Shown here piece by piece: positions 2,916 through 21,139 of a DNA stretch of 44,007 nt. The DNA comes from a phage. The stretch lies in sequence record PX907401.1; one strand, given 5' to 3'. The notes beneath the pieces are model-generated. The model did not search any database. It was given only the letters and a program-made list of their open reading frames with translations, and was not told the DNA's origin. A program made the position numbers and the translations under genes. Position 1 is the stretch's first letter; every line of letters begins with the position of its first letter.

Positions 2916-2924
2916 TTTGGCCCC

Positions 2925-3308: not shown

Positions 3309-3449
3309 CCAATATTAATCACGCGCATGAAAAAGTTGATCGCTATCAGCTGTGACTGCATTTTTCACTACGCATAATGCATTGGTTGCCGAGTTCATCC
3401 GCGACCGCACTTCGCATCATGCTGCCGTGTATTTTGCGATCCACGGATT

Positions 3450-3623
3450 TTATTCAGTCTCAGACGAGGGGGGCCGTTGACCCCCGTCTAGTCTGAAAGA
3501 CTGGGGTTTGTCCCGCCTGTCCCGCTCCTCTGGAAGCCGCGCCATCCGGGGCGGGACGGGGGTGCTGTCCCGCTTTGTCCCGCCCCTTGTTTGTCCCGCT
3601 TTCTGTCCCGCTTACTTTATGCA
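3450..3623. repeat. Dispersed repeat element, copy A (about 174 bp; second copy at 31279-31452)
   Basis: Near-identical 5' 75 bp and 3' 48 bp shared with copy B; contains six direct TGTCCCGC heptamers plus one inverted, and hairpin-capable segments. Confidence 0.85.
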
Positions 3624-3696
3624 GTTTTATTGCATAACTATTCATTACAGCTACACGACACGGCAACCAATACGACCAGTTAAAAACGCCCAAAAT

Positions 3697-3836
3697 GGCA
3701 ACCAATGCGCGCAAAATTTAACCTTTTAGCGATATGGGAATTCCCATATCGGCAACCAATGCGCGCAAAATTTAACCTTTTAGCGATATGGGAATTCCCA
3801 TATTGGCAACCAATGCGCGCAAAATTTAATCTTTTA
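3697..3836. repeat. Tandem direct repeat, 54-bp unit x about 2.6, each unit with a perfect 18-bp palindrome ATATGGGAATTCCCATAT and a GCAACCAAT motif
   Basis: Units at 3697-3750, 3751-3804 and partial 3805-3836; palindromes at 3732-3749 and 3786-3803; overlaps the primase stop codon (3826-3828). Confidence 0.9.
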
Positions 3837-6100: not shown

Positions 6101-6430
6101 TTACTTAGAAGTTTTATTATTGCGTACCCAGGAGCGCACTGTGCTCTGATTAATTCCGGTCAACTCGGCAATCATCGCCCAAGATTTGCCCTCGGCGCGC
6201 AAACGGATAACCTGCTTTTTGTATTCTTCCATTTCTTCATTGTGTTTTTGCAGCTTGCTTGCTGCTGTACCGTTGAGCAATTCCAGCCTGGAGCGTAATT
6301 CTTTTTCGACACTGCGCAGTCGTTCGATTTCAAATAACACCACCCCCACGGCATCGGTATAAGCCCATGACCGGCTTGTCTCACTGCAAACAGTCTTCGT
6401 TAACATTTCGATTGCGTCGTTTACATTCAT
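6101..6430 (-). CDS. Small DNA-binding protein with C-terminal helix-turn-helix (putative transcriptional regulator)
   Basis: 109 aa; coiled-coil-like N-terminus; C-terminal KSWAMIAELTGINQSTVRSWVRN resembles an HTH; GAGGG 8 nt upstream of the ATG. Confidence 0.6.
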   Translation of the reverse strand: MNVNDAIEMLTKTVCSETSRSWAYTDAVGVVLFEIERLRSVEKELRSRLELLNGTAASKLQKHNEEMEEYKKQVIRLRAEGKSWAMIAELTGINQSTVRSWVRNNKTSK

Positions 6431-6560
6431 TGCTCTGCCCTCAGTTGGTTAATGACCAACGAAACTACACCCAAAACTGCACGGTGTCAAATCCTTTTGA
6501 TATTGAAACGGGCGCGCACGCGTGTAATAATAATTCTCGTCTCATTGTCTCTTATTGGTT

Positions 6561-6593
6561 AGCGCCGTCGCATTTTGCCTCGGCGCTTTTTTT
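6561..6593 (+). terminator. Terminator-like hairpin plus T-run immediately upstream of the early promoter
   Basis: AGCGCCG-loop-CGGCGCT followed by TTTTTTTG. Confidence 0.4.
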
Positions 6594-6604
6594 GAAATTA
6601 GTTG

Positions 6605-6634
6605 TTGACACCCATCCTGCAACCAATCTATCAT
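6605..6634 (+). promoter_or_regulatory. Early promoter, sigma70-like (-35 TTGACA, 18-bp spacer, -10 TATCAT)
   Basis: Perfect TTGACA at 6605-6610; GCAACCAAT motif lies within the spacer; about 60 nt upstream of the first plus-strand gene; a second perfect TTGACA on the minus strand at 6485-6490 faces the HTH gene. Confidence 0.55.
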
Positions 6635-6694
6635 TCACTCCGTAGACAGGGCATACCGCCCTGACACCTAAACTTAACCAATCGGAGATACACC

Positions 6695-7126
6695 ATGTTT
6701 GAACAAATCGTAAACCTGATTACTCGCGGCGTAGTAGCGCTGGAAACCATCGCTAAGTATTATGAAACCGTTGGCGCTGCCGTTGGTAAGCAGGAAGACA
6801 AGAAGCCGTCTAAGGCCAAAAAAGAAGTCGTAGAAGATGACGACGATGAAGAAGCCGAAGACGAAAAACCGGCTAAAGCTAAAAAAGCACCGGCGAAAGG
6901 CAAAGGGAAGAAAGATGCCGATCCGCTGGCAGAGATGCGCGACGAGATCAAGCAGTACGCCGCGATTATCGCCGGTGGCGATGACGACGATGCTAACGAC
7001 GAATTTGACGACCTGCTGGAAGCGTTCGAGATCAAATCAATCGCTAAGCTGGAAGACGACGACGTCGAAGACTTCCACAAAGATTTAAAAGAAATCGTCG
7101 AGACTTATTTCGAACTGGAAGACTAA
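6695..7126 (+). CDS. Highly acidic early protein (143 aa) with lysine-rich insert; DNA-mimic or anti-restriction candidate
   Basis: GGAGA RBS 6 nt upstream; runs of D/E (EDDDDEEAEDE, GGDDDDANDEFDD, EDDDVEDF) flanking KAKKAPAKGKGKK. Confidence 0.75.
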   Translation: MFEQIVNLITRGVVALETIAKYYETVGAAVGKQEDKKPSKAKKEVVEDDDDEEAEDEKPAKAKKAPAKGKGKKDADPLAEMRDEIKQYAAIIAGGDDDDANDEFDDLLEAFEIKSIAKLEDDDVEDFHKDLKEIVETYFELED

Positions 7127-7130
7127 TATC

Positions 7131-7256
7131 ATGGACTATGAAATGAGAATCATGCTCGATTTCATAGCAGAAAATTGGGCGGCATTCACCGCCTTCTGCG
7201 AAGAAAGAGGCGACGACCCGGACGAGGTTTATAAACAACTCGGCGGTGAAGATTAA
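7131..7256 (+). CDS. Small hypothetical protein (41 aa), not in the ORF track
   Basis: ATG at 7131, MDYEMRIMLDFIAENWAAFTAFCEERGDDPDEVYKQLGGED; followed by a terminator. Confidence 0.35.
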   Translation: MDYEMRIMLDFIAENWAAFTAFCEERGDDPDEVYKQLGGED

Positions 7257-7264
7257 TATTATCC

Positions 7265-7291
7265 GGCCCGCATATTAGCGGGCCTCTTTTT
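7265..7291 (+). terminator. Rho-independent terminator
   Basis: GGCCCGC-ATATTA-GCGGGCC followed by TCTTTTT. Confidence 0.65.
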
Positions 7292-7304
7292 AGAGGACGA
7301 GACA

Positions 7305-7556
7305 ATGGCACGATTCACGCTAATCGAGGCGGTGGATTCCCGCGACCAGCGCCCGTACTATTGGCTATTCGAACGCATCGGCAGCTTTCAATCCCGCGTT
7401 GCCGTAATAGATAAACGCCGTAACACGCCCGCGCAAATTAAGCGCACCACCTTTACTAACCCCGACTTTTATATTTGGGCGGACTCCAATCTGGAATATG
7501 TTCGCTTTGCGGTTGCATCCGAAGCAAGAACGATTGACCGCTGGGAGACGAAATAA
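7305..7556 (+). CDS. Hypothetical protein (83 aa)
   Basis: ORF with purine-rich stretch upstream. Confidence 0.55.
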   Translation: MARFTLIEAVDSRDQRPYYWLFERIGSFQSRVAVIDKRRNTPAQIKRTTFTNPDFYIWADSNLEYVRFAVASEARTIDRWETK

Positions 7557-7745
7557 ATGGCTATATTCTTTGTTTTATTTCGTTGCCGTATCACCGGCGA
7601 CGAGCAACCGGAAATTGTTATGAATCAAAACTGGAATTGCTGCTGGATGCAAGCCCGAGGACTGGCGGCTACCAAGAACAATGCCGCTAAGCGGGCCAAT
7701 GTTGAACACGATTATTACATTGCTCAGTTTACAAGGGTGGAATAA
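7557..7745 (+). CDS. Hypothetical protein (62 aa)
   Basis: Start overlaps the upstream stop (TAAATGG); tightly packed operon. Confidence 0.4.
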   Translation: MAIFFVLFRCRITGDEQPEIVMNQNWNCCWMQARGLAATKNNAAKRANVEHDYYIAQFTRVE

Positions 7746-9175
7746 TGGCGATTAAACCAAAACGTAAGACGCAATCCGGTAGCAATACCGAACACTCATT
7801 ACTCGGGCCGTCCGGTGCTAAAAAATGGATGGGTTGCCCTGCCGCTCTGGTGGTAGAAAAAGATATCCCAAACGAATCCGGGCAAGCCGCGATTAACGGT
7901 ACGAGTATGCACACCGTATCGGAGGTGGTGCTAAACCGCATTATCGCCGGTGAGAAGCTGATAACCGCGAAGACGCATAAAGGGTGCTACGTCGAGAACG
8001 AAGGCAAGGGGCCAGTAAAGGCACACCCTAAAGCACCGAAAGGCGGCGTACTGGTCAACGACGACATGGTGAAACAGTGCGACGCGTACATCGACCACTG
8101 GCGACCGCTCCTCGAAGTGGCGGAGTTTGTCCAGCTTGAGATGCGCGCCGATCTCACCCGCGTCCTACACTCTGGCTTCGAGATCGACGGCAACCGGGTT
8201 AAGACGTTCGGCACTGCGGATATGGTCATGGTCATGAAGAAGACCGACGGCACGTACATGCTGATTGTTGGCGACCTGAAGACGGGGCGGCATAAGGTCG
8301 AGGCGAAAGAAAACAAACAGCTTATGCTGTATGCGCTCGGCCTGCTGCGCAAGCTGAAAACTATGTACGACATTACGACCGTGCGCCTGGTTATCTTCCA
8401 GCCGTATTGCGGCGGGGCGTCGGAGTGGGATATTTCAGTGGAAGCCCTGGAGATATTCGCGAAGTTTGCGTCCAAGCGTGCAATCGCCGCCCTGGAAGCG
8501 TACGCACGCGGCAAAAAGGGACTCACCCGCGCCGACTTCAGACCGAGCGTTGATGCGTGCCAGTGGTGCAGATTTGCGGACCAGTGCAGCGTCCGGGCGA
8601 AGGCCGCAATCGACACGATGACACCGCCAACGGCAACCGACGAAGACCTGGGCGACGACGTGAGCGTGGCTACCGAGGAAGAATGCGCCAATCACGACCG
8701 CAATATGGCCCGCGAAGCCCGGAAGGCGGCCCGACGTGCGAAGCGTGGTAAGAAAGAAGCGGCCCCCGGCGCTATGAGCGCGGCGGAACTGCGCAAGGCT
8801 TATGAAGGCCTTGATGCGATGCGCCAGCACATCAAGGCTATCGAGTCCGCGGTATTCAAGGCCGTAATGGCTGGTGATGGCGAATCGCTGGGCCTCAAGA
8901 TGGTTGCCGGTAAGGAAGGAATCCGCAAGTGGGCGGACGAGAGCGAAGTGATTGAAATCTTCACGAAGGCCCGGATCAAGCGCGATGTGATGTACAAAGA
9001 AACATTACTCAGTCCTACGGATGCCGAGAAGGTACTGAAGGACGAGAAGCCGAAAGTGTGGGCCAAATTGTGTGATAAAATAACGCGCGCACCGGCCAAA
9101 CCGGTATTAGCACCCATTGACGACCCGCGCCCTGCGTGGTCTGAAGCTACTGACGAGGACTTAAGCAATGAATAA
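7745..9175 (+). CDS. PD-(D/E)XK-family exonuclease (Cas4/DUF2800-like) with C-terminal Cys cluster
   Basis: 476 aa; N-terminal HSLLGPSGAKKWMGCP; core VGDLKTGRHKVEAKENKQLMLYALGL (D..K and Q..Y motifs); CQWCRFADQC cysteine cluster. Confidence 0.8.
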   Translation: MAIKPKRKTQSGSNTEHSLLGPSGAKKWMGCPAALVVEKDIPNESGQAAINGTSMHTVSEVVLNRIIAGEKLITAKTHKGCYVENEGKGPVKAHPKAPKGGVLVNDDMVKQCDAYIDHWRPLLEVAEFVQLEMRADLTRVLHSGFEIDGNRVKTFGTADMVMVMKKTDGTYMLIVGDLKTGRHKVEAKENKQLMLYALGLLRKLKTMYDITTVRLVIFQPYCGGASEWDISVEALEIFAKFASKRAIAALEAYARGKKGLTRADFRPSVDACQWCRFADQCSVRAKAAIDTMTPPTATDEDLGDDVSVATEEECANHDRNMAREARKAARRAKRGKKEAAPGAMSAAELRKAYEGLDAMRQHIKAIESAVFKAVMAGDGESLGLKMVAGKEGIRKWADESEVIEIFTKARIKRDVMYKETLLSPTDAEKVLKDEKPKVWAKLCDKITRAPAKPVLAPIDDPRPAWSEATDEDLSNE

Positions 9176-9410
9176 AGTATTCGCAATCTTATTGATGTTT
9201 TTGCTCGGCGCGCTGGGCTTTATCCTGCATTGTGTGCAAGGCGTGTTAATGGTCGCCTGGATGATTCGACATCCTACCCGCTGGCTGGATGACGGCTATA
9301 ACGAAGCTGCCGTCGATTGGGTGGAAAAGAACATCAACCGCCCGCCGTTAAGCTGGATCGAGAACGCGACCAACTACGTTACCAGAAATCTTTTTAATGA
9401 AAATGCTTGA
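9168..9410 (+). CDS. Small membrane protein (80 aa)
   Basis: N-terminal hydrophobic segment FAILLMFLLGALGFILHCVQGVLMVAWMI. Confidence 0.5.
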   Translation: MNKVFAILLMFLLGALGFILHCVQGVLMVAWMIRHPTRWLDDGYNEAAVDWVEKNINRPPLSWIENATNYVTRNLFNENA

Positions 9411-9500
9411 CCGCTTAGGCGCAACCAAGTAGATTATCAACCAAGCCGGACGGGGTGGCTCACAATAACCCCGATACATGTGAAAATGAGGAATTGGAAA

Positions 9501-10223
9501 ATGACTAAAGTCAACCTGAAAAATGTGCGCGTATGTTTCCTGAAAATTTGGGAACGTGATACCCCTAAACAGGATGGACAAAAACCGGCATACCGCGCCG
9601 TGATTCTTCTTGATAAAGAAGATCCGCAGGTGGACAAAGTGGAAGCGGCAGCACGCGCAGTGCTCACCGACAAGCTGAAATCCGAGAAGAATGCCGATAA
9701 GTGGATGGACCGCCACTACGCCCAGGATTCTAAGGAATGTGCAGTTCGCGACGGCGACGAGCGCGACGAAGTGACCGAAGAATTCGAAGGCATGTTGTAC
9801 ATCAACGCCAAGTCGTTCAAACAGCCTATCATTCAAACGTCACTCGGCGAGAAGCAGACTGAACAGGGTCTGACCATCGACGGCGACGAGATTGAAGGCC
9901 AGGAGATCTACTCCGGTTGTTATTGCAACGTGTCCCTTGATATTTGGGCGTGGAACAATACCAACGGCAAGGGTCTCGGGGCGGGCTTGCTGGGCCTGCG
10001 ATTCCGTGAAGACGGCGAAGCCTTCGGCGGTGGCGGGTCTTCTTGCTCCGATGAAGACCTGGACAACGACGACGAAGACGAAGCACCGCGCAAGGCTAAG
10101 AAGTCAAAACGTCGTGATGACGATGAGGAAGATGAGAAACCTCGCAAACGTCGTAAGCCACGCGATGACGAAGATGAGGACGACGACGAAGACGAAGCAC
10201 CACGTAAACGTCGCCGCCGTTAA
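9501..10223 (+). CDS. Putative ssDNA-binding protein (DUF2815-like) with repetitive mixed-charge C-terminal tail
   Basis: GAGGA 8 nt upstream of the ATG at 9501 (ORF frame opens at GTG 9480); N-terminus MTKVNLKNVRVCF...; tail DEDEAPRKAKKSKRRDDDEEDEKPRKRRKPRDDEDEDDDEDEAPRKRRRR; sits between exonuclease and polymerase. Confidence 0.6.
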   Translation: MTKVNLKNVRVCFLKIWERDTPKQDGQKPAYRAVILLDKEDPQVDKVEAAARAVLTDKLKSEKNADKWMDRHYAQDSKECAVRDGDERDEVTEEFEGMLYINAKSFKQPIIQTSLGEKQTEQGLTIDGDEIEGQEIYSGCYCNVSLDIWAWNNTNGKGLGAGLLGLRFREDGEAFGGGGSSCSDEDLDNDDEDEAPRKAKKSKRRDDDEEDEKPRKRRKPRDDEDEDDDEDEAPRKRRRR

Positions 10224-10242
10224 GGGCAAAGCCCACTATTCA

Positions 10243-10265
10243 AGCCCGCTTAATGCGGGCTTTTT
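10243..10265 (+). terminator. Rho-independent terminator
   Basis: AGCCCGC-TTAAT-GCGGGCT followed by TTTT. Confidence 0.7.
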
Positions 10266-10281
10266 AATAGGACAATGAAAA

Positions 10282-10452
10282 ATGCGTATTAAAGCCAGCG
10301 AAGTAAAAGTCGGAATGCAAGTATGGTCCAAGCTACTGGGGGAATATTTCACAGTTGCCGAGATTCGCAACAACGGCGAAGAAATCGCCCTGTCCGACGG
10401 CATCTTCTCCATGATCGGCAGCAATGACGCCGTAGTGAGGATAAAGCAATGA
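10282..10452 (+). CDS. Small hypothetical protein (56 aa), translationally coupled to the polymerase (ATGA overlap)
   Basis: MRIKASEVKVGMQVWSKLLGEYFTVAEIRNNGEEIALSDGIFSMIGSNDAVVRIKQ; its stop overlaps the polymerase ATG at 10449. Confidence 0.5.
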   Translation: MRIKASEVKVGMQVWSKLLGEYFTVAEIRNNGEEIALSDGIFSMIGSNDAVVRIKQ

Positions 10453-13400
10453 AAGACTTCGAACGCCTGTTTCTCGACACCGAGACATTTAGCGGGGTGG
10501 ACCTGAAGAAAGTTGGGGCGTACGCCTACGCAGAGCACCCAACCACCGAGATTATGATTTGCACATACGCCATCGACGAGGGCCGCGTGCAGACATGGGA
10601 TTGCACTGAATCCCCCACAATGCCGCGTGAACTGCGCAAAGCGATCCGCCATGTATCCCGCAAGAAAGCAAAAATCGTGATGGCTAACGGCCTCCTGTTT
10701 GACCGCCTGGTTATTCGCGAGAAGTGGGGTATTGACCTGCCGGTAAGCCAGATCGAAGACACCATGATTATGGCCTTTCGCCACGCGCTGCCGGGTAGCC
10801 TCGATATGCAGTGCCAGGTGCTGGGCGTTGACGCAGAGCACGCGAAGGATAAGGCAGGCAAGGCGCTGATTAAACGATTCTGTAAGCCTACCCCTAAGAC
10901 CTACAAAATACGCCGCTACACTCGCGAGACTCACCCGGAAGAATGGGCCAAATTTCTGCGCTATGCCGCGCTGGATATTATCGCAATGCGTGAAGTCTAC
11001 TGGCGCATACCGGACTGGGGTAATACTCCGAAGGAAGATGAAATCCTACTTATCGACCAGTTGATCAACGACCGCGGCTTCTATGTGGACGTTGACCTGG
11101 CGAACGCCGCGATCAAAGCGGTGCAGGCGCATAAGGAAGAATTGAAGGAAGAAGCCTGGGAGCGATTTGGCGGTAAGCTGACCGGCAATGACTTCCTGCC
11201 AATCCTGCGTGATATCGCCCCGGCGTTCACGATCCACAACGCGCAGAAATCCACACTTAACGACCTACTGGAAGACCCGGACTTCCCGGACGAGGGCAAA
11301 GCGCTTATCGAAATGCGCCTCGGTGCGTCATCAACGGCATCTACTAAATACAATCCGCTTGTCAATGGCCTGTCCGCCGATGGTCGCCGCCGTGGTTGTC
11401 TTCAGTATGGTGGGGCAAAGCGCACGCTACGCTGGGCCGGTAAAGGCTTTCAACCTCAAAACCTGGCGCGTGGCGAGTACAGCGACGACCACGAAGGGAA
11501 GATTAAACGCCGCGAGGGTGAAAGCGACGTCTCGTTTTGGGTCCGGTCGCACATGCTCACCAACGGCATCAACTCCCTGTTACGCGGGACCGCACACTGG
11601 GCGTATGACATATCGAAGCTAACGGCCTCGACCGTTCGCGGGTGCATTATTCCGGCGAAGGGCAAGAAGTTTGTCGTAGCGGACTACTCCAACGTGGAAG
11701 GGCGTGGACTTGCCTGGATCGCTGGCGAGAAAACAGCGTTAATGGTCTTTAAGGCCGGTCGCGATATCTATTGCGAGACTGCCGGTAAGATGTTCGGCCT
11801 GGACCCGGACTACATTAAAGCCAACCGCAAGGACTTACGCCAGATCGGTAAGGCTTGCTTGCACCGCCATACCCAAGTATTGACCAATGGCGGGTTCAAG
11901 GATATTATGGCCGTAACATCAACGGATAAAGTATGGAACGGCGAAAAATGGGTGAGTACAAAAGGCGCGCACCTTATGGGGTGGAAACCAGTGATAGACG
12001 TGGACGGGGTCTTGATGACAGAAGACCACAAAATCTTGACGCATTCATGGAAGGAGGCAAGGCAACTCGTTTCAGACAGGTGCACGATGGCCCGCGCCCT
12101 GGCGAGAGGTATGGACGCCTGGTTATCCTGCGCGAATTACCAAAACGACAGGGGCACAGACAACTGCTGGCTCAATGTGATTGCGGAGCGATGCCAGGAC
12201 GCGTCGGGTATGACAACGTCCGAAGGGGTAAAACATCCCAATGCAACCTCTGCGCAATTGAAGCGACAAAGCGGTATCGTAAACAGTATTTTTGCTACGA
12301 TGACGCAATGCCAGACGATGCGCACAGAACGCGGCTGCTCAACCGGCTGTCCGCGGCAATATCACGAACGACAAACCCCCGCGCCAAAGGGTATAAAAAC
12401 TATGGCGGTCGTGGGATTGCCGTATGTGACGAATGGAAAAGAGATAAAAGGTCGTTTCTTCGCTACGTTCAAACGCTGGACGGCTGGGATAATCCAGACT
12501 TCGAAATGGACCGGGTCGATACAGACGGCAACTATGAGCCTGGAAACCTTCGGTTTGTCAGCCGTTCGGAAAACTGCCGTAACCGGCGCAGCGTGCCCGA
12601 GCTTCAGCGAAAGTGCGATGAAGCCCTTACCCGCATTGCTGAACTGGAACGGGAAGTTAACCTATTGCGAGCCGGTTTACGACCTGATTGATGTGGAAGA
12701 CGGAAACCGGTTCCTTATTGCGTCTAAGTCTGGTTTTCTGGTGGCGCATAACTGCGAGCTAGGCTTGGGCTATGGTGGCGGCGTGGCAGCGTTCTTGCAG
12801 TTCGCTAAAAACCTGGGCCTCGACCTGTACACTATGGCGGACGTGATGAAAGGCACGTTCCCGGATCACATTTGGGCGGCGGCGAAACGCGGCTATGAGT
12901 ACGCCCGCATTAACGAAGCGAAACGCCCACCGAAGCCTGGCAAGAAGGACGAGCGACCGACTTACATACTGCCGAAAAACGTATGGCTGACGTGCGACGC
13001 GATCAAACGTATGTGGCGAGAGGCCCACCCGAAGACGGTTGCCTTTTGGGCCGAGCTTGAGGACGCGGTGTTGTGTGCAATCCGCAATCCGGGCAAAGCA
13101 TACTGGGCTGGCGCGAACGTTCGCCCGGATGGCAAGAAAGCGCTCAAGATTGTTCGCACGAAGGCGAAGCACGACCCAACCTTCGACGAGGAGCGCGACG
13201 ACCCGGACGCTGCGGGGTGGTGGTTGAAAATTGAGTTGCCGTCGGGGCGCATCATGAGCTACCCCGGCATCGCGCTGTCTGTCACGACAGAGATTGACGA
13301 GGACACCGGCAAGAAGCGCACCAGCACACGCATTAAATATCAGGGCGAGAATCAGACGACGCGCCAGTGGGGGTTCCAGTACACCTACGGCGGCAAACTG

Positions 13401-13637
13401 ACGGAGAACATCGTACAGGCGTTGTGCCGTGATATTCTCGCATGGTCCATGCCGGGCGTCGAAGCCGCGGGGTATGAAATAGTCCTGTCAGTACACGATG
13501 AACTGATCACCGAAGTGCCCGACACAGACGACTACACGACAGAGGAGCTTTGCGCGCTGATGTGCGACCTGCCTGTTTGGGCGAAAGGCTTCCCACTTGC
13601 CGCCGAAGGTGATTGTATGTATCGCTACCGCAAGTAG
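10449..13637 (+). CDS. Family-A (Pol I-like) DNA polymerase with 3'-5' exonuclease domain, interrupted in motif B by an intein
   Basis: 1062-codon uninterrupted ORF; Exo I LFLDTETFS; motif A VVADYSNVEGRG; motif B RQIGKA / CELGLGYGG split by a 299-codon insert; motif C VHDE. Confidence 0.9.
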   Translation: MKDFERLFLDTETFSGVDLKKVGAYAYAEHPTTEIMICTYAIDEGRVQTWDCTESPTMPRELRKAIRHVSRKKAKIVMANGLLFDRLVIREKWGIDLPVSQIEDTMIMAFRHALPGSLDMQCQVLGVDAEHAKDKAGKALIKRFCKPTPKTYKIRRYTRETHPEEWAKFLRYAALDIIAMREVYWRIPDWGNTPKEDEILLIDQLINDRGFYVDVDLANAAIKAVQAHKEELKEEAWERFGGKLTGNDFLPILRDIAPAFTIHNAQKSTLNDLLEDPDFPDEGKALIEMRLGASSTASTKYNPLVNGLSADGRRRGCLQYGGAKRTLRWAGKGFQPQNLARGEYSDDHEGKIKRREGESDVSFWVRSHMLTNGINSLLRGTAHWAYDISKLTASTVRGCIIPAKGKKFVVADYSNVEGRGLAWIAGEKTALMVFKAGRDIYCETAGKMFGLDPDYIKANRKDLRQIGKACLHRHTQVLTNGGFKDIMAVTSTDKVWNGEKWVSTKGAHLMGWKPVIDVDGVLMTEDHKILTHSWKEARQLVSDRCTMARALARGMDAWLSCANYQNDRGTDNCWLNVIAERCQDASGMTTSEGVKHPNATSAQLKRQSGIVNSIFATMTQCQTMRTERGCSTGCPRQYHERQTPAPKGIKTMAVVGLPYVTNGKEIKGRFFATFKRWTAGIIQTSKWTGSIQTATMSLETFGLSAVRKTAVTGAACPSFSESAMKPLPALLNWNGKLTYCEPVYDLIDVEDGNRFLIASKSGFLVAHNCELGLGYGGGVAAFLQFAKNLGLDLYTMADVMKGTFPDHIWAAAKRGYEYARINEAKRPPKPGKKDERPTYILPKNVWLTCDAIKRMWREAHPKTVAFWAELEDAVLCAIRNPGKAYWAGANVRPDGKKALKIVRTKAKHDPTFDEERDDPDAAGWWLKIELPSGRIMSYPGIALSVTTEIDEDTGKKRTSTRIKYQGENQTTRQWGFQYTYGGKLTENIVQALCRDILAWSMPGVEAAGYEIVLSVHDELITEVPDTDDYTTEELCALMCDLPVWAKGFPLAAEGDCMYRYRK
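11856..12752 (+). other. Intein (protein-splicing element) within DNA polymerase motif B
   Basis: Starts with Cys (CLHRHTQVLTNGGFKDI), TxxH-like block (EDHKILTHSW), ends VYDLIDVEDGNRFLIASKSGFLVAHN followed by +1 Cys; flanks reconstitute the RxxxKxxxFGxxYG motif. Confidence 0.75.
11933..12691 (+). CDS. HNH-type (HNH_3/AP2-like) homing-endonuclease-like ORF in the -1 frame, entirely inside the intein
   Basis: 252-codon ORF; GERYGRLVIL...CDCG...QCNLC (Zn-ribbon-like) and GYKNYGGRGIAVCDEW...DRVDTDGNYEPGNLRFVSRSENCRNRR; the overlapping polymerase frame is also open throughout. Confidence 0.55.
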   Translation: MERRKMGEYKRRAPYGVETSDRRGRGLDDRRPQNLDAFMEGGKATRFRQVHDGPRPGERYGRLVILRELPKRQGHRQLLAQCDCGAMPGRVGYDNVRRGKTSQCNLCAIEATKRYRKQYFCYDDAMPDDAHRTRLLNRLSAAISRTTNPRAKGYKNYGGRGIAVCDEWKRDKRSFLRYVQTLDGWDNPDFEMDRVDTDGNYEPGNLRFVSRSENCRNRRSVPELQRKCDEALTRIAELEREVNLLRAGLRPD

Positions 13638-13668
13638 CGGAAATGTTGCGTTTAACGGAAATAAGATT

Positions 13669-13947
13669 ATGACACCCGAAGGCAAGATACAAAGTCACCT
13701 GATGAAGCTGGTTAAAGCCGTTGGGGGATTCTGCCGAAAACTGGCATGGGAGGGGCGCGCAGGTGCGCCCGACCTGATTATTATCATCAACGGCAAAATA
13801 GTGTTCGTCGAAGTGAAGCGCCAAGGCGGAAAACCGAAGCCGCACCAGGTACGAGAACATGAGCGAATGGCCCGCCGTGGTGCTGACGTTCGCGTCATCG
13901 ACAACATAGCCGACTGTGATTTATTGGTTGCTGAATTGGTCGCTTAA
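13669..13947 (+). CDS. VRR-NUC domain nuclease (PD-(D/E)XK fold)
   Basis: 92 aa from the ATG at 13669 (GGAA about 9 nt upstream); GAPDLIIIINGKIVFVEVKRQGGKPKPHQ motif. Confidence 0.7.
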   Translation: MTPEGKIQSHLMKLVKAVGGFCRKLAWEGRAGAPDLIIIINGKIVFVEVKRQGGKPKPHQVREHERMARRGADVRVIDNIADCDLLVAELVA

Positions 13948-13987
13948 CAGTATAGTGAGCAGGTTAGCTCTACCGAGGATTTTAGAA

Positions 13988-14161
13988 ATGATTGAGGAAA
14001 AACGTTGCAGTAATTGCGGTTGCGTCAAGCCGCTATCCCAGTTCCACAAATACACCGGTAAGACCGCGCGAAGCCCGGACGGGTATCGGGCCGAGTGCAA
14101 ATCGTGCCGCAATAAAAAAGAGCGCGAACGGCAGCGCCGCTACCGCGCAGAGCAAAAATAA
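13988..14161 (+). CDS. Small Zn-ribbon protein (CxxC...CxxC)
   Basis: 57 aa from the ATG at 13988 (GAGGA 8 nt upstream); CSNCGC...ECKSCRNKKERERQRR. Confidence 0.55.
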   Translation: MIEEKRCSNCGCVKPLSQFHKYTGKTARSPDGYRAECKSCRNKKERERQRRYRAEQK

Positions 14162-14168
14162 TTAATAC

Positions 14169-14191
14169 GGCGGGCTTGTCCCGCCATTTTT
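14169..14191 (+). terminator. Rho-independent terminator
   Basis: GGCGGG-CTTGT-CCCGCC followed by ATTTTTG; the stem contains the TGTCCCGC heptamer also found in the dispersed repeats. Confidence 0.55.
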
Positions 14192-14198
14192 GGGAGAC

Positions 14199-14423
14199 AT
14201 GACGATGAAAGAACATTACCGACTCACCAAGCTGGGCGAATGTAAACCGGGCGATCGCGTATGGTTTATCGCGGGCATGAATGATCCGCTGCCGTTGACG
14301 GTGTGCTGGCAAAAATTTAAGAGCTTCCGGGCTACCGGTGTGCACATCGGACACGCCACCAACTACGACGCTACAAAAAGGAACTGGAACAGTGAAACCG
14401 AAGTCTGGAAAAAGGCGGAATAA
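14199..14423 (+). CDS. Hypothetical protein (about 74 aa)
   Basis: ORF with GGGAGA upstream; start could be ATG 14199 or 14205. Confidence 0.5.
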   Translation: MTMKEHYRLTKLGECKPGDRVWFIAGMNDPLPLTVCWQKFKSFRATGVHIGHATNYDATKRNWNSETEVWKKAE

Positions 14424-14427
14424 AGAA

Positions 14428-15852
14428 ATGGCACGATTCCGACGCCGCGAATATCAGAAGTTGATAACCGCGTTCATCCTCAAGCATAAGCGATGCAATA
14501 TATGGGCGACAATGGGGTCGGGTAAAACCGGCGCGACCATGTGGGCGCTGAATAAAATGTTCCAGACCGGCATCCTGTCCAACCAGGAGGACCGCGTACT
14601 GGTGCTAGCCCCGCTGCGCGTTGCGTCCGGTACATGGCCCCCGGAACAGGAGAAATGGCGCTTCCCAGCCTTGCTGGTGGTAGACGGCACTGGGTCAGAG
14701 AAGGACCGCATCGCGGCGCTTGAGAGCGACGCTAACGTGGTTTGTGTTAACTACGATGTGGTTGAGTGGCTGGTCGACTATTACGGCGATGCGTGGCCCT
14801 TTACGGTCGTTGTTGCCGATGAATCCACTAAGCTGAAAGGCTATCGTAGCAAGCAGGGGAGCAAGCGCGCCCGCGCACTGGCAGCGATTGCACATAAACA
14901 CGTCAAGCGCTGGATTAACCTGACCGGCACACCAGCGCCAAACGGGCTGAAAGACTTATGGGGCCAGACGTGGTTTGTCGACGGTGGCGAACGACTCGGC
15001 AGTAGCTATAAGGCATTTACCGACCGCTGGTTCATTAGCAAGCCTGTTAAGCCTGGCAGCTTCACTATGCAGCACGCTCCGCTAAAGAACTCCGAGAAAG
15101 AAATACAACAACGCCTGTCTGACGTATCACTAACCGTTGACGCGGCTGAATACTTCGGGTGCGACAAGCCAATCTATACGCCGGTTGTTGTGGATCTACC
15201 GAAGAAAGCCCGCAAGATTTACGACCAGTTTGAAAGCGAGCTATTTGCCGAACTGGAAAGCGGAACAGTGGAAGCGGCTAACGCTGCGTCGAAGACCATC
15301 AAGTGCCTTCAGCTTGCTTCCGGCGCTGTGTATAAGGTGGACGAAGACGGCGAACGGACCGACGAGTGGGTGAAGATTCACGACGCCAAACTGGACGCGC
15401 TGGAAAGTATCGTGGAGGAGTTGAACGGCGCGCCGTTGCTCGTTGCGTATCAGTATAAGCATGACCTGGCACGTCTTAAGAAGAAATTTCCGCACGGCGT
15501 CGCGTTGGGTAAGGGTAAGCAGGGCAATAAGGATATGGAAGCGTGGAACAGGGGCGAGATCCCCATCATGTTTGCACACCCGGCATCGGCAGGCCACGGC
15601 CTTAACTTGCAGGACGGCGGACATCACCTGGCAATCTTCTCCGATACCTGGAACTTTGAGCATTTTTCGCAGATCGTTGAACGTATCGGGCCGGTTCGCC
15701 AGATGCAGGCCGGACACCCTCGACCGGTATTCGTCTACATTATCCAGGCGCGCGGGACACTGGACGAATTGGTCGCCGAGCGTCGCGACAGTAAGCGAGA
15801 TATACAGGACGACTTGATGGAATACATGAAAGCTAAAAAGGCGCGCAAATGA
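14428..15852 (+). CDS. SNF2-like superfamily-2 helicase/ATPase
   Basis: ATG 14428 (MARFRRREYQKL); Walker A MGSGKTGA; DExx VVADESTKLK; NLTGTPAPNGLKDLW (SNF2-type motif III). Confidence 0.8.
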   Translation: MARFRRREYQKLITAFILKHKRCNIWATMGSGKTGATMWALNKMFQTGILSNQEDRVLVLAPLRVASGTWPPEQEKWRFPALLVVDGTGSEKDRIAALESDANVVCVNYDVVEWLVDYYGDAWPFTVVVADESTKLKGYRSKQGSKRARALAAIAHKHVKRWINLTGTPAPNGLKDLWGQTWFVDGGERLGSSYKAFTDRWFISKPVKPGSFTMQHAPLKNSEKEIQQRLSDVSLTVDAAEYFGCDKPIYTPVVVDLPKKARKIYDQFESELFAELESGTVEAANAASKTIKCLQLASGAVYKVDEDGERTDEWVKIHDAKLDALESIVEELNGAPLLVAYQYKHDLARLKKKFPHGVALGKGKQGNKDMEAWNRGEIPIMFAHPASAGHGLNLQDGGHHLAIFSDTWNFEHFSQIVERIGPVRQMQAGHPRPVFVYIIQARGTLDELVAERRDSKRDIQDDLMEYMKAKKARK

Positions 15853-16544
15853 TAATCTGGTCATTGTTTGACGGCAGCGGCTTGATGATTGAGCGTGCTG
15901 CCGAGATGGGGCATAAGTGCTACTGTTTTAACTACTCCGAAGCCGATCACGGGTCGTACCTCGACTACCGGATTTATGGCCGCGGGATCCGGTATCGCAA
16001 TGAGTTTATCGATCTGGACTTCGTGGACCGCGCGATGAATGGCGATTTCGGTACGCCGGATATCATATACGCTTTCCCGCCGTGTACGGATCTAGCAGTG
16101 AGCGGCGCGCCTGCTTTCCCGCGCAAGCGTGCAAAAGACCCCGCCTTTCAGCTTAAGGCCGTGCGCACCGCGAAGATCGCCGCTTACCTGGGTGATTTCT
16201 TTGAAGTGCCATATATGATTGAGAATCCGCGCAGTGTGCTTTCCACCCAGTGGCGCAAGCCTGATCACTCGTTCGACCCGTGGGAGTATGGGGGATATCT
16301 GCCGGAGGATGACGTACACCCGCTCTTCCCGGAATACATCAACGCCCGCGATTCATATCCGAAGCTGACCTGCTTATGGACCGGCAACGGCTTCCGTATG
16401 CCAGAGAAGAAACCCGTTTTCGTTGAAAAAGGGTACTCGAAGCAGTATAGCCGCCTCGGTGGTAAATCCGCTCGTACAAAATTAATCCGCTCACTAACTC
16501 CACGCGGCTTCGCGATAGCGGTTAACGAGGAAAATTTAAAATGA
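15849..16544 (+). CDS. Putative DNA cytosine-C5 methyltransferase (compact, 231 aa)
   Basis: Motif I-like SLFDGSG, motif IV-like FPPCTDLAVSG, motif VI-like ENPRS; ATGA overlap with the upstream helicase. Confidence 0.55.
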   Translation: MIIWSLFDGSGLMIERAAEMGHKCYCFNYSEADHGSYLDYRIYGRGIRYRNEFIDLDFVDRAMNGDFGTPDIIYAFPPCTDLAVSGAPAFPRKRAKDPAFQLKAVRTAKIAAYLGDFFEVPYMIENPRSVLSTQWRKPDHSFDPWEYGGYLPEDDVHPLFPEYINARDSYPKLTCLWTGNGFRMPEKKPVFVEKGYSKQYSRLGGKSARTKLIRSLTPRGFAIAVNEENLK

Positions 16545-16864
16545 ACGCTACATACGAAACCTTAGACTTTTCGGTTGCAATGACTAACCAGTTATTCTCC
16601 TACGACAGCAAAACCGGCGTCATTCGTCTGAAGTCCACCGGCTGCAAAATTGGCAACATCAATACTGCCGATGGTGGCACACGTATCGAATGCAACGGCA
16701 AAACTCTATCGGGGGCGCGCGTGGCGTGGATTATTGAGACTGGCAATACAATCCCTCCAGGCTATGCCGTAGTGTGCCGTCAGCGCACACCAGGCCACTA
16801 CGGCAACCGAATCAGCAATCTGTATCTGGTAGACGTAGCGCGCGACCCAAATTTTTATGCGTAA
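16541..16864 (+). CDS. Small HNH_3/AP2-family-like protein, possibly catalytically degenerate
   Basis: 107 aa; YDSKTGVIRLKSTG...GGTRIECNGKTLSGARVAWIIETG resembles the N-terminal region of phage HNH endonucleases; no clear HNH catalytic motif. Confidence 0.4.
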   Translation: MNATYETLDFSVAMTNQLFSYDSKTGVIRLKSTGCKIGNINTADGGTRIECNGKTLSGARVAWIIETGNTIPPGYAVVCRQRTPGHYGNRISNLYLVDVARDPNFYA

Positions 16865-16898
16865 ATTGGTTGCATAAGCATATTGGTTGCATTATATT
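16865..16898 (+). promoter_or_regulatory. Promoter with tandem ATTGGTTGCAT motifs (-35 TTGCAT, 17-bp spacer, -10 TATATT)
   Basis: ATTGGTTGCATaagcatATTGGTTGCATTATATT read directly. Confidence 0.5.
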
Positions 16899-16944
16899 GA
16901 GGGTGTCCGGTTGGACGCCCTTTTTAATACCTGGAGACAACACG

Positions 16945-17409
16945 ATGAAAATTTTACAAGAAGAAAAAGCATACTGGGCCGCGCAATGCCTCGAAGCCCG
17001 CGAACAGGCCGAACGTGCGAACGCGTTGGCAGACACTAACCAGGCGCTATATGAAGGCGAGGAGAAGGCGCGCAAGGAATTAGTGGAGCGCTTCGAACTG
17101 CTGTATGAGTTGATGGGTATTATGCAGCGCACCGGGTACACAACCACCGTCGCGCTAAACCGCATCACTGCCGATGGTTTGCGTGAGCATTGCAAACTAG
17201 CGGAAGAGTACGTGCGCCCCAAAGGTCGCCAGTCTAAGATCGACCGGAAAGACCTGGTGCTTATGGCGTGGCGCAACCCCACAAACGGCAACTTCTACCC
17301 GGACGCGCGCCCTTTAGGTGTGTCGGAGACGCAGCGATTGCAGCGAATCCTGAAAAAAGGTGACAAGATTGCCCTGTATGCGATAGACCCCGACCATGCA
17401 GAAGAGTGA
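16945..17409 (+). CDS. Hypothetical protein (154 aa)
   Basis: ATG at 16945 with GGAGA RBS; the track ORF starts earlier at 16774 without an RBS. Confidence 0.55.
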   Translation: MKILQEEKAYWAAQCLEAREQAERANALADTNQALYEGEEKARKELVERFELLYELMGIMQRTGYTTTVALNRITADGLREHCKLAEEYVRPKGRQSKIDRKDLVLMAWRNPTNGNFYPDARPLGVSETQRLQRILKKGDKIALYAIDPDHAEE

Positions 17410-17881
17410 GCAAAAAGATAGCTGGCGCACGCCGCTAGCTTTATTTAAACCGCTGCGCCGTAAGTTCCGATTCCGTTACGATATGGCGGCAAGCGACGCC
17501 AATCATCTGCTACCGCGTTACTTCACGGCAGAGCACAGCGCGCTTGATGTGGACTGGGCAGAGTTGAAAGGGTGGAAGTGGTGCAATCCGCCGTATTCCG
17601 ATCCGCTGCCGTGGGTTGAGTGCGCTGCGCACGGACGACGGACTGTCATGCTGCTGAATCAGGACACGTCGACGAAGTGGGCGAAGTTGGCCCGGAAGAC
17701 TGCAAACCTGATAATTCTTCTGGACTGGCGGGTGAGATTTATACACGCCGTCACCGGCGAAGTCGGGCCGAGCAATAACAAGTGCCAGCAATTGATAATC
17801 TTTGACGAAGCGCCACCCATCGGCAGCGCAAAAATTGAAATAATGAGCGAAGGAGAACTCCTTGAATATCTTAATCGTTGA
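17396..17881 (+). CDS. Phage-type DNA N6-adenine methyltransferase (Dam-like)
   Basis: 161 aa; WRTPLALFKPL N-terminal motif and NPPYS catalytic motif. Confidence 0.75.
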   Translation: MQKSEQKDSWRTPLALFKPLRRKFRFRYDMAASDANHLLPRYFTAEHSALDVDWAELKGWKWCNPPYSDPLPWVECAAHGRRTVMLLNQDTSTKWAKLARKTANLIILLDWRVRFIHAVTGEVGPSNNKCQQLIIFDEAPPIGSAKIEIMSEGELLEYLNR

Positions 17882-18086
17882 CCGCGACCCAGCGGTCGTA
17901 GACCAAATGCAAAGAGACTATAACATCAACCCACGCCGCGATTGTGTGCGTCGCGTGTCACGGCCTGAATACCTTCTGGGCCTGGATCTTACCGGCTGGC
18001 TTGTCATAACCAAGCGTTGCCATTTCGTGTGCAACTCCTTCACCGCGCGCAGCGCCCGATACACCCTTATTGAGAGCTTAAAATGA
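17862..18086 (+). CDS. Hypothetical protein (74 aa)
   Basis: ORF overlapping both neighbours by a few codons. Confidence 0.4.
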   Translation: MNILIVDRDPAVVDQMQRDYNINPRRDCVRRVSRPEYLLGLDLTGWLVITKRCHFVCNSFTARSARYTLIESLK

Positions 18087-18553
18087 AACTACTGATTTGT
18101 GATCTTGATGGCGTTATTAATGGTTCGAGTGATGCACGCGCCGACCTGGTGCCGGGTATAAAAACCAAATCAACATTTTGGGCAAAGTGGCACAAAGCGC
18201 ATGCACGCGAAGACCTGAACATGGATATGCTGCCGCTGTTGCGCATGTACAAAGAGCAAGGCTTCGAGATCGCGTATCTGACAAACCGGCAGCGCGAATG
18301 TTGGGACACGACCGCCGAACAACTGGAGGTCTTCCCCGCAGGCCGGTTGTTTATGCGCCACATGCTGGACGACACCCCGCCGCCAGAGTTTAAGGCGTGC
18401 GCCGTGTTCAAAATGGTCTGCTATGCGGACGTATCGGAACTGGTCGTCATTGAAGACTGTCCGAAGAACATCGCGGCAATTCGTCGGGCGTGCAGCGATC
18501 TGGTCCCGAAAATTTATGCGATAAACGTTGAAAAATTCACTTGCAACCAATAG
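18083..18553 (+). CDS. HAD-superfamily phosphatase-like protein
   Basis: 156 aa; N-terminal LICDLDGVI (HAD motif I DxDG). Confidence 0.55.
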   Translation: MKLLICDLDGVINGSSDARADLVPGIKTKSTFWAKWHKAHAREDLNMDMLPLLRMYKEQGFEIAYLTNRQRECWDTTAEQLEVFPAGRLFMRHMLDDTPPPEFKACAVFKMVCYADVSELVVIEDCPKNIAAIRRACSDLVPKIYAINVEKFTCNQ

Positions 18554-18570
18554 GTTGGTTGCACTATAGT
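18541..18570 (+). promoter_or_regulatory. Promoter (-35 TTGCAA, 18-bp spacer, -10 TATAGT) with inverted GCAACCAAT / TTGGTTGC motifs
   Basis: TTGCAACCAATAGGTTGGTTGCACTATAGT read directly; overlaps the 3' end of the upstream gene. Confidence 0.45.
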
Positions 18571-18615
18571 TAACGCGTCGGGGCAATATGGCCCCACGCT
18601 AAAAAGGACCACATA

Positions 18616-19170
18616 ATGAAAGCATACGAATACTGCAAAAACGCCGCCACCACTATGGAACAGCGCGGGAAAGAAAATGGCTATGACAACGCGAAAGAAG
18701 AACGCAGCGCGAAACAGATCGCTGCCGTGTTTAACGCGCTTACCGGGCGCGACCTTACCGAGCAAGAAGCCTGGACATTCCTGATCTGCCTGAAGCTGGT
18801 GCGCCAGCACCGTAAGCACCAGGAAGATAACATCGTGGATCTGGTGGCGTATGCCGCCCTGCTGGGCGAGTCTTACATGACCGTGCATGATGAGATTCAG
18901 ATCGACACAACGGCAGCACAATTCGAAAGCCTAAAAGATCTGTCCGGGCGTCTTGACGGCGAGATTAATGCGTATAACAGTGCAATGCGCGTTACCGGGG
19001 ATATGGTGGCCTCGTTCGGGAAGACCGTTAAAGCTGCCAATTTCGGCATTGCTGCCCAAGAAGTCCAGCCTATGGTCGTGCTCACCGGCGAAGACGGGTC
19101 TAAAATCCTCATGACGCCGGAAGACTTCCGCAACATGGAAAAAACACTGGTACGTAGCGCGCTGAAATAA
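18616..19170 (+). CDS. Hypothetical protein (184 aa)
   Basis: AAGGA RBS upstream of the ATG. Confidence 0.55.
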   Translation: MKAYEYCKNAATTMEQRGKENGYDNAKEERSAKQIAAVFNALTGRDLTEQEAWTFLICLKLVRQHRKHQEDNIVDLVAYAALLGESYMTVHDEIQIDTTAAQFESLKDLSGRLDGEINAYNSAMRVTGDMVASFGKTVKAANFGIAAQEVQPMVVLTGEDGSKILMTPEDFRNMEKTLVRSALK

Positions 19171-19212
19171 AACTAATCGCGGGCTTCGGCCCGCGGCAAT
19201 GAGGACCACACA

Positions 19213-19788
19213 ATGTACGGCGAATATGAAATATCCGGTAAACAATTCCACCTGGCGGCAATGATAGCAAGCATCGAGTTTGATCAGTGGCGCTTAAAGT
19301 CTGACGCGTGCAAGCAAAGCCGACTGGTCGGTGTGCTGGGCGAAATGTTTGCAGGCATGTACCTTGAAGGGCAGGCGGGCGGGCGTAGTTGCATCCCGCA
19401 AGGTTTGCTTATGCGTACCGGCCTGTTTAGCGCCAATACCATTGACCGCGGCGATATTATCATGGTCGGCAAGCGCAAGGTAAAGTCCGGCCACGACTTC
19501 CGCGAGCATGTGGTCGATGCCGTATGGACCTACGAAGTTAAGGCCACCAGCGGCATCCGTCGCGGACTGGTAGAGGCGCGTTGCGCTCGCGAGTATCTTA
19601 CCCGTCGCGTTGCCGGTGTTATCCTGGTGGGTGTGTCGTTAGGGCCACAAAGCGCGCACGGCGTTATTGAAGATATCGCGGAGCCGTACGTGATTGTTAA
19701 TGACTGGCCCTTAGTGGAAGTTGAGGGCAAGGAATACTACGAAAGCCCACTGGTGCGGCGCAAAATGGACTGGGAAAACTCAAACTAA
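19213..19788 (+). CDS. Hypothetical protein (191 aa), last gene of the plus-strand block
   Basis: ORF followed by a bidirectional terminator. Confidence 0.55.
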   Translation: MYGEYEISGKQFHLAAMIASIEFDQWRLKSDACKQSRLVGVLGEMFAGMYLEGQAGGRSCIPQGLLMRTGLFSANTIDRGDIIMVGKRKVKSGHDFREHVVDAVWTYEVKATSGIRRGLVEARCAREYLTRRVAGVILVGVSLGPQSAHGVIEDIAEPYVIVNDWPLVEVEGKEYYESPLVRRKMDWENSN

Positions 19789-21059: not shown

Positions 21060-21139
21060 AGCTGAATCCTCATAAATTGGTTGCAATCCTGGTTGAGCGG
21101 TGTAATACTAAAACTCAACCAAATACAGGAGATGATACC

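Follow-up and report, generated by a model that had tools for sequence, protein, structure and literature searches.

The window, that is, the whole 44,007-bp stretch of DNA that was analysed, is a complete, circularly permuted Dhillonvirus genome (HK578-like lytic siphophage of E. coli) with ~91% DNA identity to phages welsh, jat and Envy. The gene map was obtained by carrying over the annotation of phage welsh. On this map, two divergent arms start from a 264-bp control region (6431-6694). Genes for replication and DNA metabolism are on the rightward arm (6695-19788); the leftward arm carries gp34, the primase-helicase gene, a 574-bp non-coding gap, and then small genes and those for lysis, packaging, head and tail. 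Two genes on the opposite strand break the leftward arm: sie (21140) and a 'moron' gene, RusA-like/beta-clamp-like (37150). Non-coding DNA makes up ~7% of the genome, and Rfam, applied to the whole window at gathering thresholds, returned zero matches. In most relatives a 136-bp insertion lies between the predicted promoter P_R (listed below) and gp33; the window and CHD5UKE2 are without it.

Dispersed over this genome is a short word, ATTGGTTGC or, inverted, GCAACCAAT, hereafter the box. Counted on both strands of the whole genome, it is present in 16 exact copies versus 0.47 +/- 0.67 expected, and the maximum in a control of 100 dinucleotide-preserving shuffles was 3 copies of ATTGGTTGC. In an unbiased screen using an order-3 Markov model, ATTGGTTGC was the top over-represented 9-mer of the genome (16 copies against an expectation of 0.48), and among 10-mers ATTGGTTGCA came first (9 copies against 0.10). 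The original prediction had put the number at 15 or more against well under one by chance, which the exact count bears out. Its list of positions was mostly correct, except that the copy given as 3662 is at 3663, the entry 18555 is a one-mismatch copy (GTTGGTTGC) at 18554, and the copy at 2719 had been missed. Further one-mismatch copies of use here are ATTGGTCGC at 3274 and 13935.

The site was defined from 70 unique sites pooled from six lineages. It reads R-TTGGTTGC-(A preferred, G and C less so, T avoided), i.e. 10 bp (RTTGGTTGCA), asymmetric and with sharp edges; position 1 is a purine, and no information was found outside the 10 bp. Twelve of the 16 exact copies are strictly intergenic, three lie no more than 25 bp from a gene end (13923, 18543 and 21076) and one is intragenic, so that the claim of essentially exclusive placement between genes or at their ends holds for 15 of the 16. 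We estimate the binomial chance of such non-coding placement, given ~7% non-coding DNA, at ~1e-11. The exception is the following copy, which occupies the same place in relatives; the ORF that contains it matches phrog_12533 across its full length.

2719-2727, plus strand: box inside the 89-codon ORF 2646-2915; promoter context not evident.

Most of the remaining copies lie in or beside predicted sigma-70 promoters, all promoters described here being consensus predictions from sequence:

282-290, plus strand: box of P_gp45, a single copy upstream of the minus-strand small ORF and phosphoesterase genes.
3274-3313, minus strand: predicted promoter P_gp36; box 3305-3313 supplies the -35 TTGCAT (3308-3303), and the -10 TATATT is at 3285-3280.
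6605-6634, plus strand: predicted promoter P_R (gp33 and replication operon, rightward early); TTGACA-18-TATCAT with inverted box GCAACCAAT at 6619-6627.
13923-13956, plus strand: predicted promoter P_gp23; box 13923-13931 supplies the -35 TTGCTG, and the -10 TATAGT is at 13951-13956.
16865-16898, plus strand: predicted promoter P_gp17; box 1 (16865-16873) supplies the -35 TTGCAT (16870-16875), and box 2 (16882-16890) lies in the spacer.
16893-16898, plus strand: -10 of P_gp17, TATATT, after a spacer of 17 bp.
18541-18570, plus strand: predicted promoter P_gp13; TTGCAA-18-TATAGT, the spacer filled by the inverted pair GCAACCAAT (18543-18551) and GTTGGTTGC (18554-18562).
21076-21109, plus strand: predicted promoter of sie, the opposite-strand superinfection-exclusion gene; box 21076-21084 supplies the -35 TTGCAA, and the -10 is AATACT/TAATAC.
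37067-37110, plus strand: predicted promoter P_orf37150 of the 'moron' gene 37150-37638; TTGCAA-18-TATATT, with box 37080-37088 abutting the -10.

Across the genome, a promoter scan found promoter-like sites overall to be no commoner than in shuffled sequence. The association with the box is statistically supported: a -10-like hexamer stands 16-18 bp downstream of 6 of 20 motif-associated TTGC tetramers versus 2.6% of other TTGCs (Fisher p = 2.6e-5). The proposal that the TTGCA(T/A) part of the motif frequently acts as a -35 applies to a subset of copies, with four convincing cases: 3305(-), 13923(+), 16865(+) and 21076(+). In the commonest layout, ATTGG-TTGCAx forms the -35 and is followed by a 17-bp spacer and then TATATT, TATAGT or AATACT. 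A second box is usually placed in the spacer (start at -16 or -11) or fused to the -10 as TATATTGGTyGC (start at +3; fused form TATATTGGTTGC). Abutment on or overlap with the -10, which had also been predicted, was confirmed at 16882, 18554 and 37080 (abutting) and at 3274 and 37094 (fused, TATATTGGT...). The consensus scan found sigma-70 hexamers 16-18 bp apart at 6605-6634, 18541-18570 and 37067-37096; at the latter two, a separate TTGCAA serves as -35 and both boxes lie between -22 and +12. Each box-bearing promoter has at least one copy within the RNA-polymerase footprint (-40 to +12), and both the -35 and the -10 hexamers of these promoters are conserved in relatives. Relative to the -10, the box takes at least five registers (-28 as -35, -22 inverted, -16, -11 and +3), and its orientation is not constant, with inverted copies at P_R, P_gp13 and P_gp45. 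With these variable registers and inversions, and with the arrays outside promoters described below, the box departs from the constant position and orientation expected of a fixed promoter element.

Individual promoters were compared with their counterparts in relatives. P_R is the best sigma-70 consensus match of the scan (11/12), and the inverted box in its spacer adjoins the -10; its -35, box and -10 are conserved in 7 genomes, and its counterpart in the metagenomic genome L006 has two adjacent inverted boxes. In P_gp36 a second box, ATTGGTCGC (3282-3274), is fused to the -10 and makes up one half of a palindrome TTGGT-N5-ACCAA (3267-3281); the 17-bp spacer varies among relatives while the boxes are invariant. 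Likewise, both boxes of P_gp17 are invariant and the 8-bp linker variable in 8 relatives, and phage Teewinot lacks exactly one copy. P_gp23 overlaps the end of the VRR-NUC gene and holds the one-mismatch box ATTGGTCGC (13935-13943) in its spacer; L006 (3486) and Edwardsiella phage eiAU (18147/18115) have the two-box layout ahead of the orthologue as well. In P_gp13, 18/18 box columns are invariant in 9 sequences. P_orf37150 has a second box (37094-37102), also fused to the -10, that gives rise to the palindrome TTGGTTGCACACCAA (37095-37109). At P_gp45, two inverted boxes flank the -10 of TTGACT-18-CATACT in relatives; the segment between them is deleted in the window.

The palindrome TTGGT-N5-ACCAA occurs at 3 sites in the genome versus 0.05 expected. 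Two of these cover the start regions of P_gp36 and P_orf37150; the third lies ahead of the start codon of gp34:

6444-6460, no strand: palindrome GTTGGTTAATGACCAAC, of the form RTTGGT-N5-ACCAAY; it follows a putative leftward promoter and precedes the start codon of gp34.

By our reading of the sequence, the putative leftward promoter of gp34 consists of TTGACA (6490-6485), a 17-bp spacer and TAGTTT (6467-6462), and the palindrome is a candidate autoregulatory operator for gp34. A full box takes the place of this palindrome ahead of the gp34-like gene in the metagenomic genomes L006, L008 and L010.

Several other features were observed around the promoters. A strong terminator-like hairpin (16899-16925; 10-bp stem, -17.3 kcal/mol, then a U-run) begins one base past the -10 of P_gp17. 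Upstream read-through would terminate there, and transcripts starting at ~16904-16905, without most of the 5' arm, would escape. P_gp13 and P_gp23 likewise have small hairpins past the -10, which show compensatory changes. Just upstream of P_R, a promoter-like TTGAAA-17-AATAAT with an upstream TG (6503-6531, plus strand) precedes a hairpin (6562-6586) with a T-run behind it (6587-6593); this region (6503-6593) could give a short non-coding transcript and holds a degenerate box, ATTGGTTAG (6554-6562). Precise deletions with their ends in two direct box copies were found at 240-345 of the window and at the P_gp17 orthologue of Teewinot (L003), and the boxes act as short recombination substrates; the deletion at 240-345 took out the segment that holds the -10 of the phosphoesterase operon's upstream promoter. 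The core of the inverted box, AACCAAY/ACCAAC, stands 13-22 nt upstream of the start codon, just before the ribosome-binding site, of the first gene per unit, namely gp33 (6670-6694), gp34 (6431-6460), gp36 (3252-3275), orf37150 (37103-37149), sie (21110-21139) and the small ORF at 259 (260-290). Its role could be that of a half-operator on the downstream side, or it could act at the RNA level.

The densest set of boxes in the window lies outside the promoters, directly behind the primase-helicase gene:

3826-6090, minus strand: primase-helicase gene (754 aa, AAA_25), with the box cluster directly downstream; an alternative candidate reader of the box or initiator.
3654-3826, minus strand: box array after the primase-helicase stop codon, with four ATTGGTTGCC-type boxes at 3663, 3698, 3752 and 3806.

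The gap past the stop codon (3252-3826) contains six boxes. Three of the four ATTGGTTGCC-type boxes belong to tandem repeats of 54 bp, in each of which a perfect palindrome of 18-20 bp, ATATGGGAATTCCCATAT(CG), stands beside the box, and a box in the opposite orientation is found at 3381-3389, 260-350 bp from the array. The copy number of the array differs among close relatives, from 1 to 6. The equivalent gap of eiAU holds 8 boxes in both orientations, and the box is the main repeat there; a ninth copy falls within the 3' end of the primase-helicase gene. Clustering of boxes next to the primase-helicase gene was seen in every motif-positive lineage, and no comparable repeats were found at this gap in motif-negative relatives. 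A repeat cluster in non-coding DNA beside a replication-protein gene, as at iterons, is thus present at 3252-3826, and by this arrangement the region is probably a replication origin. A second repeat family, GCGGGACA, shares the gap and is lineage-specific, being replaced by GGGTGCCA in L008 and by ACTCGCAA in a lineage with 49% primase-helicase identity.

A ~110-bp segment is present twice at 86% identity (3500-3625 and 31320-31445, minus strand). Both copies contain six (G/A)CGGGACA(R)A octamers; the first copy lies in the gap, and the second separates the tape-measure from the tail-chaperone genes. These copies correspond to 'region B' and 'region A' of the Sodalis phage SO-1 record; the GenBank record of SO-1 marks only such other repeat regions, not the box. 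GAATAGTTATGCA recurs in this gap (~3625-3650 in the window, ~16250-16320 in L131 and ~3030-3065 in L008), the motif-negative Salmonella phage included. When compared with TTATNCACA, which we take to be the DnaA-box consensus, TTATGCA(A/G)(T/A) matches at 7-8 of 9 positions.

Conservation was measured in footprint alignments of eight promoter regions with up to nine distinct sequences, as identity to the window. Box columns are 97.3% identical versus 86% for other non-coding columns, and 87% of box columns are invariant versus 66% of other non-coding columns (p = 6e-7); most losses fall in columns where some genome has a whole copy deleted. The box is therefore under purifying selection relative to its flanks. 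Five other Dhillonvirus genomes have 14-16 exact copies each, in orthologous places. Since conservation within Dhillonvirus is partly by descent, cross-genus data carry the most weight. In L006, L008 and L010, with ~71% DNA identity to the window where alignable, ATTGGTTGC is again the top 9-mer and takes the same functional positions. In eiAU (genus Eiauvirus), TTGGTTGC occurs in 23 copies versus 2.3 expected (10-fold), 18/23 of them non-coding, and promoters are built to the same designs as in the window (TTGCAT-17-TATAGT and TATAGTTGGTTGCA).

The lineage survey covered 42 viral loci gathered by anchoring on the primase-helicase. The box is present in gp34-bearing lineages (at least 68% primase-helicase identity) and in two lineages that carry an XRE gene instead, at 48-49% identity and, in the eiAU type, at 45%. 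It is absent from XRE-bearing lineages at 37-44% identity and from Salmonella phage SaI_NFG_5577, the only host-assigned member of the motif-negative clade. The distribution of the box crosses the gp34 and XRE lineages without a co-varying protein or domain, and the box therefore seems to be ancestral, with a single loss, and not tied to the regulator gene in the control region. No published account of the box in phages or of Dhillonvirus or eiAU promoters was found in the searchable literature, and neither were transcript-start data or a published transcription programme for Dhillonvirus.

Pattern scans of viral metagenomes for box pairs returned matches that, among those listed, were dominated by a tandem repeat of 27 bp (9 codons) that includes (A/G)TTGGTTGC. 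This repeat is widespread in low-GC viral contigs of 25-80 kb (IMG/VR, e.g. L017, L025, L057 and L171) and is probably a protein-coding repetitive segment, unrelated to the box. In an unrelated 19-kb contig, L021 (IMGVR_UViG_3300038463_000167), ~12 direct and inverted copies of TAATTGGTTGCATC and its variant AACTGGTTGCTTCG lie within 450 bp (2750-3180); this looks like an iteron or operator cluster that uses nearly the same word as the box, and the ORFs beside it gave no informative domains.

Candidate proteins that might read the box were considered, foremost among them the product of the gene next to the control region:

6101-6430, minus strand: gp34 (109 aa); short N-terminal helix, 55-residue helix and C-terminal helix-turn-helix (HTH).

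By Pfam and PHROGs, gp34 is the only predicted sequence-specific DNA-binding protein in the genome, with matches to HTH_23 (30.7 bits, cut-off 24.6) and Sigma70_r4_2 (27.6 bits, cut-off 25.7). Its family is small. Among 17 members the HTH is nearly invariant and the N-terminus variable; the C-terminal 60 residues, including SWAMIAELTGINxSTVRSWVRN, are almost invariant, and the N-terminal half has been freely replaced. The AlphaFold model (pLDDT 84) shows a long helix and a terminal HTH, the latter superposing locally at ~1 A on the HTHs of LuxR/GerE, DeoR, IstA and resolvase, with all E-values >0.7 and none significant. The control region of gp34 has box copies; that of eiAU is without them. 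Although gp34 co-occurs with the box in Dhillonvirus and in the 68% lineages, it is missing from the motif-positive eiAU and 49% lineages (BLAST and profile search), and it was rejected as sole or general reader. The box predates gp34. In this phage, gp34 is nevertheless our leading, if tentative, candidate for the reader; overall, the chances are no lower that the box is read by another conserved protein of the phage or by one of the host.

XRE proteins are found in motif-positive and motif-negative phages alike, and their recognition helix differs between the two motif-positive XRE lineages, on which grounds they were rejected. So was the winged-helix-like C-terminal segment of the primase-helicase, which is not conserved among motif-positive lineages; in an alignment of 19 homologues, this variable segment precedes an acidic tail (DDDLxD) with which all of them end. 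A sliding-window comparison of the primase-helicases found no 40-residue segment that separates motif-positive from motif-negative phages, and clustering of the ORFs within 5 kb either side of the primase-helicase at 14 loci found no family exclusive to motif-positive phages. A whole-genome presence/absence comparison (window and eiAU versus SaI_NFG_5577) left HNH, Dam, DUF6378 and two structural proteins, and was set aside as a route to the reader. No MotA-, AsiA- or sigma-like protein was found among the early proteins using Pfam and PHROGs. By eye, and to our knowledge, the box fits no sigma-54 or other alternative sigma promoter and no site for DnaA, IHF, Fis, NtrC, PdhR, the marbox or EcoKI.

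We consider the chances slightly better than even that the box is a protein-binding operator that overlaps sigma-70 promoters and is reused at the probable origin, and not a fixed promoter element. RTTGGTTGC(A) would be the recognition site of a sequence-specific DNA-binding protein, one asymmetric 10-bp site presumably offering one monomer-sized contact. The phage would build this site into host-type promoters, often with one copy as the -35 and another in the spacer or on the -10/+1; with the box within the polymerase footprint, its occupancy would compete with or reshape RNA-polymerase binding. The likeliest role would be in lowering or timing the activity of early, middle and 'moron' promoters, and the regulated set would include the divergent control region that drives gp34 and the replication genes. 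Multiplied in the gap behind the primase-helicase gene, the box would probably share in origin function. Repression or timing is favoured over activation because the promoters, as predicted, should suit the host holoenzyme and the second copies cover the spacer, -10 and start site. One feature tells against an operator: the commonest layout is always forward and in fixed register as the -35, which a pure operator does not require.

That feature is what a specialised promoter class would explain, the box being read by RNA polymerase together with an activator or sigma-remodelling factor that switches on a temporal gene class. At least 10 promoters across the lineages have a forward box with its TTGC 17 bp (at times 16-18) before a good -10, the box-derived -35 hexamers TTGCAT, TTGCTG and TTGCGG are non-consensus, and gp34 scores above threshold on the Sigma70 region 4.2 model. 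However, boxes also lie in spacers, on the -10/+1, inverted, in a perfect-TTGACA promoter and in non-promoter arrays, Pfam and PHROGs revealed no MotA-, AsiA- or sigma-like protein, and TTGCxx with a 17-bp spacer and TATATT/TATAGT should already function with the host holoenzyme. We rate a promoter class as rather unlikely. The original prediction had left the choice between such a class and a regulator's binding site. Its link to sigma-70-like promoters stands, and a regulator site fits better because there are at least five registers and both orientations, a box in a perfect-TTGACA promoter and clusters outside promoters. That the regulator belongs to the phage, as also predicted, is not established, because the box outlives replacement of the obvious candidate regulator gene.

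We give about the same low probability to a primarily replicative element, in which the box would be the iteron of an initiator (e.g. the primase-helicase, P4 alpha-like at ori/crr) and the promoter copies would be secondary, coupling transcription of the replication genes to the initiator level. All motif-positive lineages do have their densest clusters directly past the primase-helicase gene, close relatives differ in copy number as with iterons, motif-negative relatives are without comparable gap repeats, and in the eiAU gap the box, with 8 copies in both orientations, is the main repeat. Yet most copies in the window are at promoters over the whole genome, the primase-helicase tail is not conserved in motif-positive lineages and no specificity segment was found in it, and the family GCGGGACA, GGGTGCCA and ACTCGCAA matches lineage-specific initiator iterons better. 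Recruitment by this clade of a conserved enterobacterial DNA-binding protein would account for the retention of the exact word across 35-49%-identical proteins, gp34/XRE replacement and the hosts Escherichia, Sodalis and Edwardsiella, and no phage protein shows a matching distribution; but a related clade, including Salmonella phage SaI_NFG_5577, is without the box, and we know of no E. coli factor with this site. A host reader is improbable in our judgement. Least plausible by far is a box without function of its own, carried along by duplicated promoter cassettes. P_gp36 and P_orf37150 do share ~30 bp beyond the box (TATATTGGTyGCACACCAACA...GAGGA), but most copies have unrelated flanks, the intervening spacers and linkers vary and the boxes do not, and the word persists at ~71% DNA identity and in another genus whose intergenic DNA is past alignment.

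A more far-reaching reading is of one 10-bp box that forms a genome-wide regulon across several lytic siphophage genera and is read by neither HTH regulator of the locus. The reader, which would couple promoter activity to origin firing, would then be an unrecognised phage DNA-binding fold or a recruited host protein, and the cis-element would stay identical while the surrounding regulators are replaced, in effect the phages' own 'DnaA-box-like' system. We regard this reading as doubtful. There is a modest chance of a less ordinary finding, namely that the reader is a host protein or a new fold.

In logic, the box system appears closest to phage operators and to the DnaA boxes or iterons that serve both an origin and promoters. 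As with lambda-type operators (Cro/CI at OR/OL) and further phage repressor sites that overlap sigma-70 promoters, several copies of one short site lie inside core promoters, the divergent control region has a small HTH gene (an XRE/Cro-type gene in relatives), and three sites are palindromic over transcription start regions. Unlike the fixed 17-bp dyads of the lambda type, the sites in the window are mostly single asymmetric 10-mers with spacings of 12, 13/14, 17 and 31 bp and variable orientation, and they are distributed among about eight promoters throughout the genome of a strictly lytic phage. DnaA boxes and plasmid iterons are similar in being asymmetric 9-10-bp words, bound by a monomer per site, clustered by a replication-protein gene and reused in promoters; in the window, however, most copies are in promoters, the origin is a predicted one, and no DnaA- or Rep-like reader was found. 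The T4 MotA box is likewise an asymmetric 9-bp box in the -35 region which, with a standard -10, marks a set of phage promoters, but the box described here varies in position, has second copies on the spacer or -10 and keeps the TTG of a normal -35, and MotA/AsiA homologues are absent. P4 alpha with ori/crr resembles the locus in having a large primase-helicase beside repeat-rich non-coding DNA and a second homologous block elsewhere (here 3500-3625 and 31320-31445); this likeness is one of layout only, and it is closer for the GCGGGACA repeats than for the ATTGGTTGC box.

Dhillonviruses are E. coli phages that are commonly encountered and easy to isolate. The BASEL collection includes them, and research on defence systems and phage therapy makes use of them. 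By marking about eight predicted promoters and the probable origin, the box provides a ready map of transcription units. It could serve as an engineering handle (tunable native promoters and safe insertion points) and as a specific bait for the regulator. Because it outlives the swap of the neighbouring regulator gene, it also offers a small, testable case of co-evolution between a cis-word and its reader in mosaic phage genomes.

Two further observations concern coding sequence and composition elsewhere in the genome. The DNA polymerase frame (10449-13637) has 1062 codons, uninterrupted, versus 763 in relatives. The difference is an insertion of ~700 bp at ~11949-12650, with welsh residues 437-514 matching on both sides and an overlapping 252-codon ORF (11933-12691) in another frame. 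The insertion had no match to Rfam introns even at E <= 1 and none to Pfam intein or HNH domains; the annotators of SO-1 describe it as a group I intron with an HNH gene. Other words are also over-represented. ACGGCAGC or ACGGCAAC is a top 8-mer in nearly all related loci, motif-negative ones included. AACGGCAGC occurs in 15 copies versus 0.9 expected, 14/15 inside genes and 11/15 co-oriented with transcription (e.g. 4489, 14127, 26869 and 38883), and may be a polar, Chi-like or other DNA-level signal.
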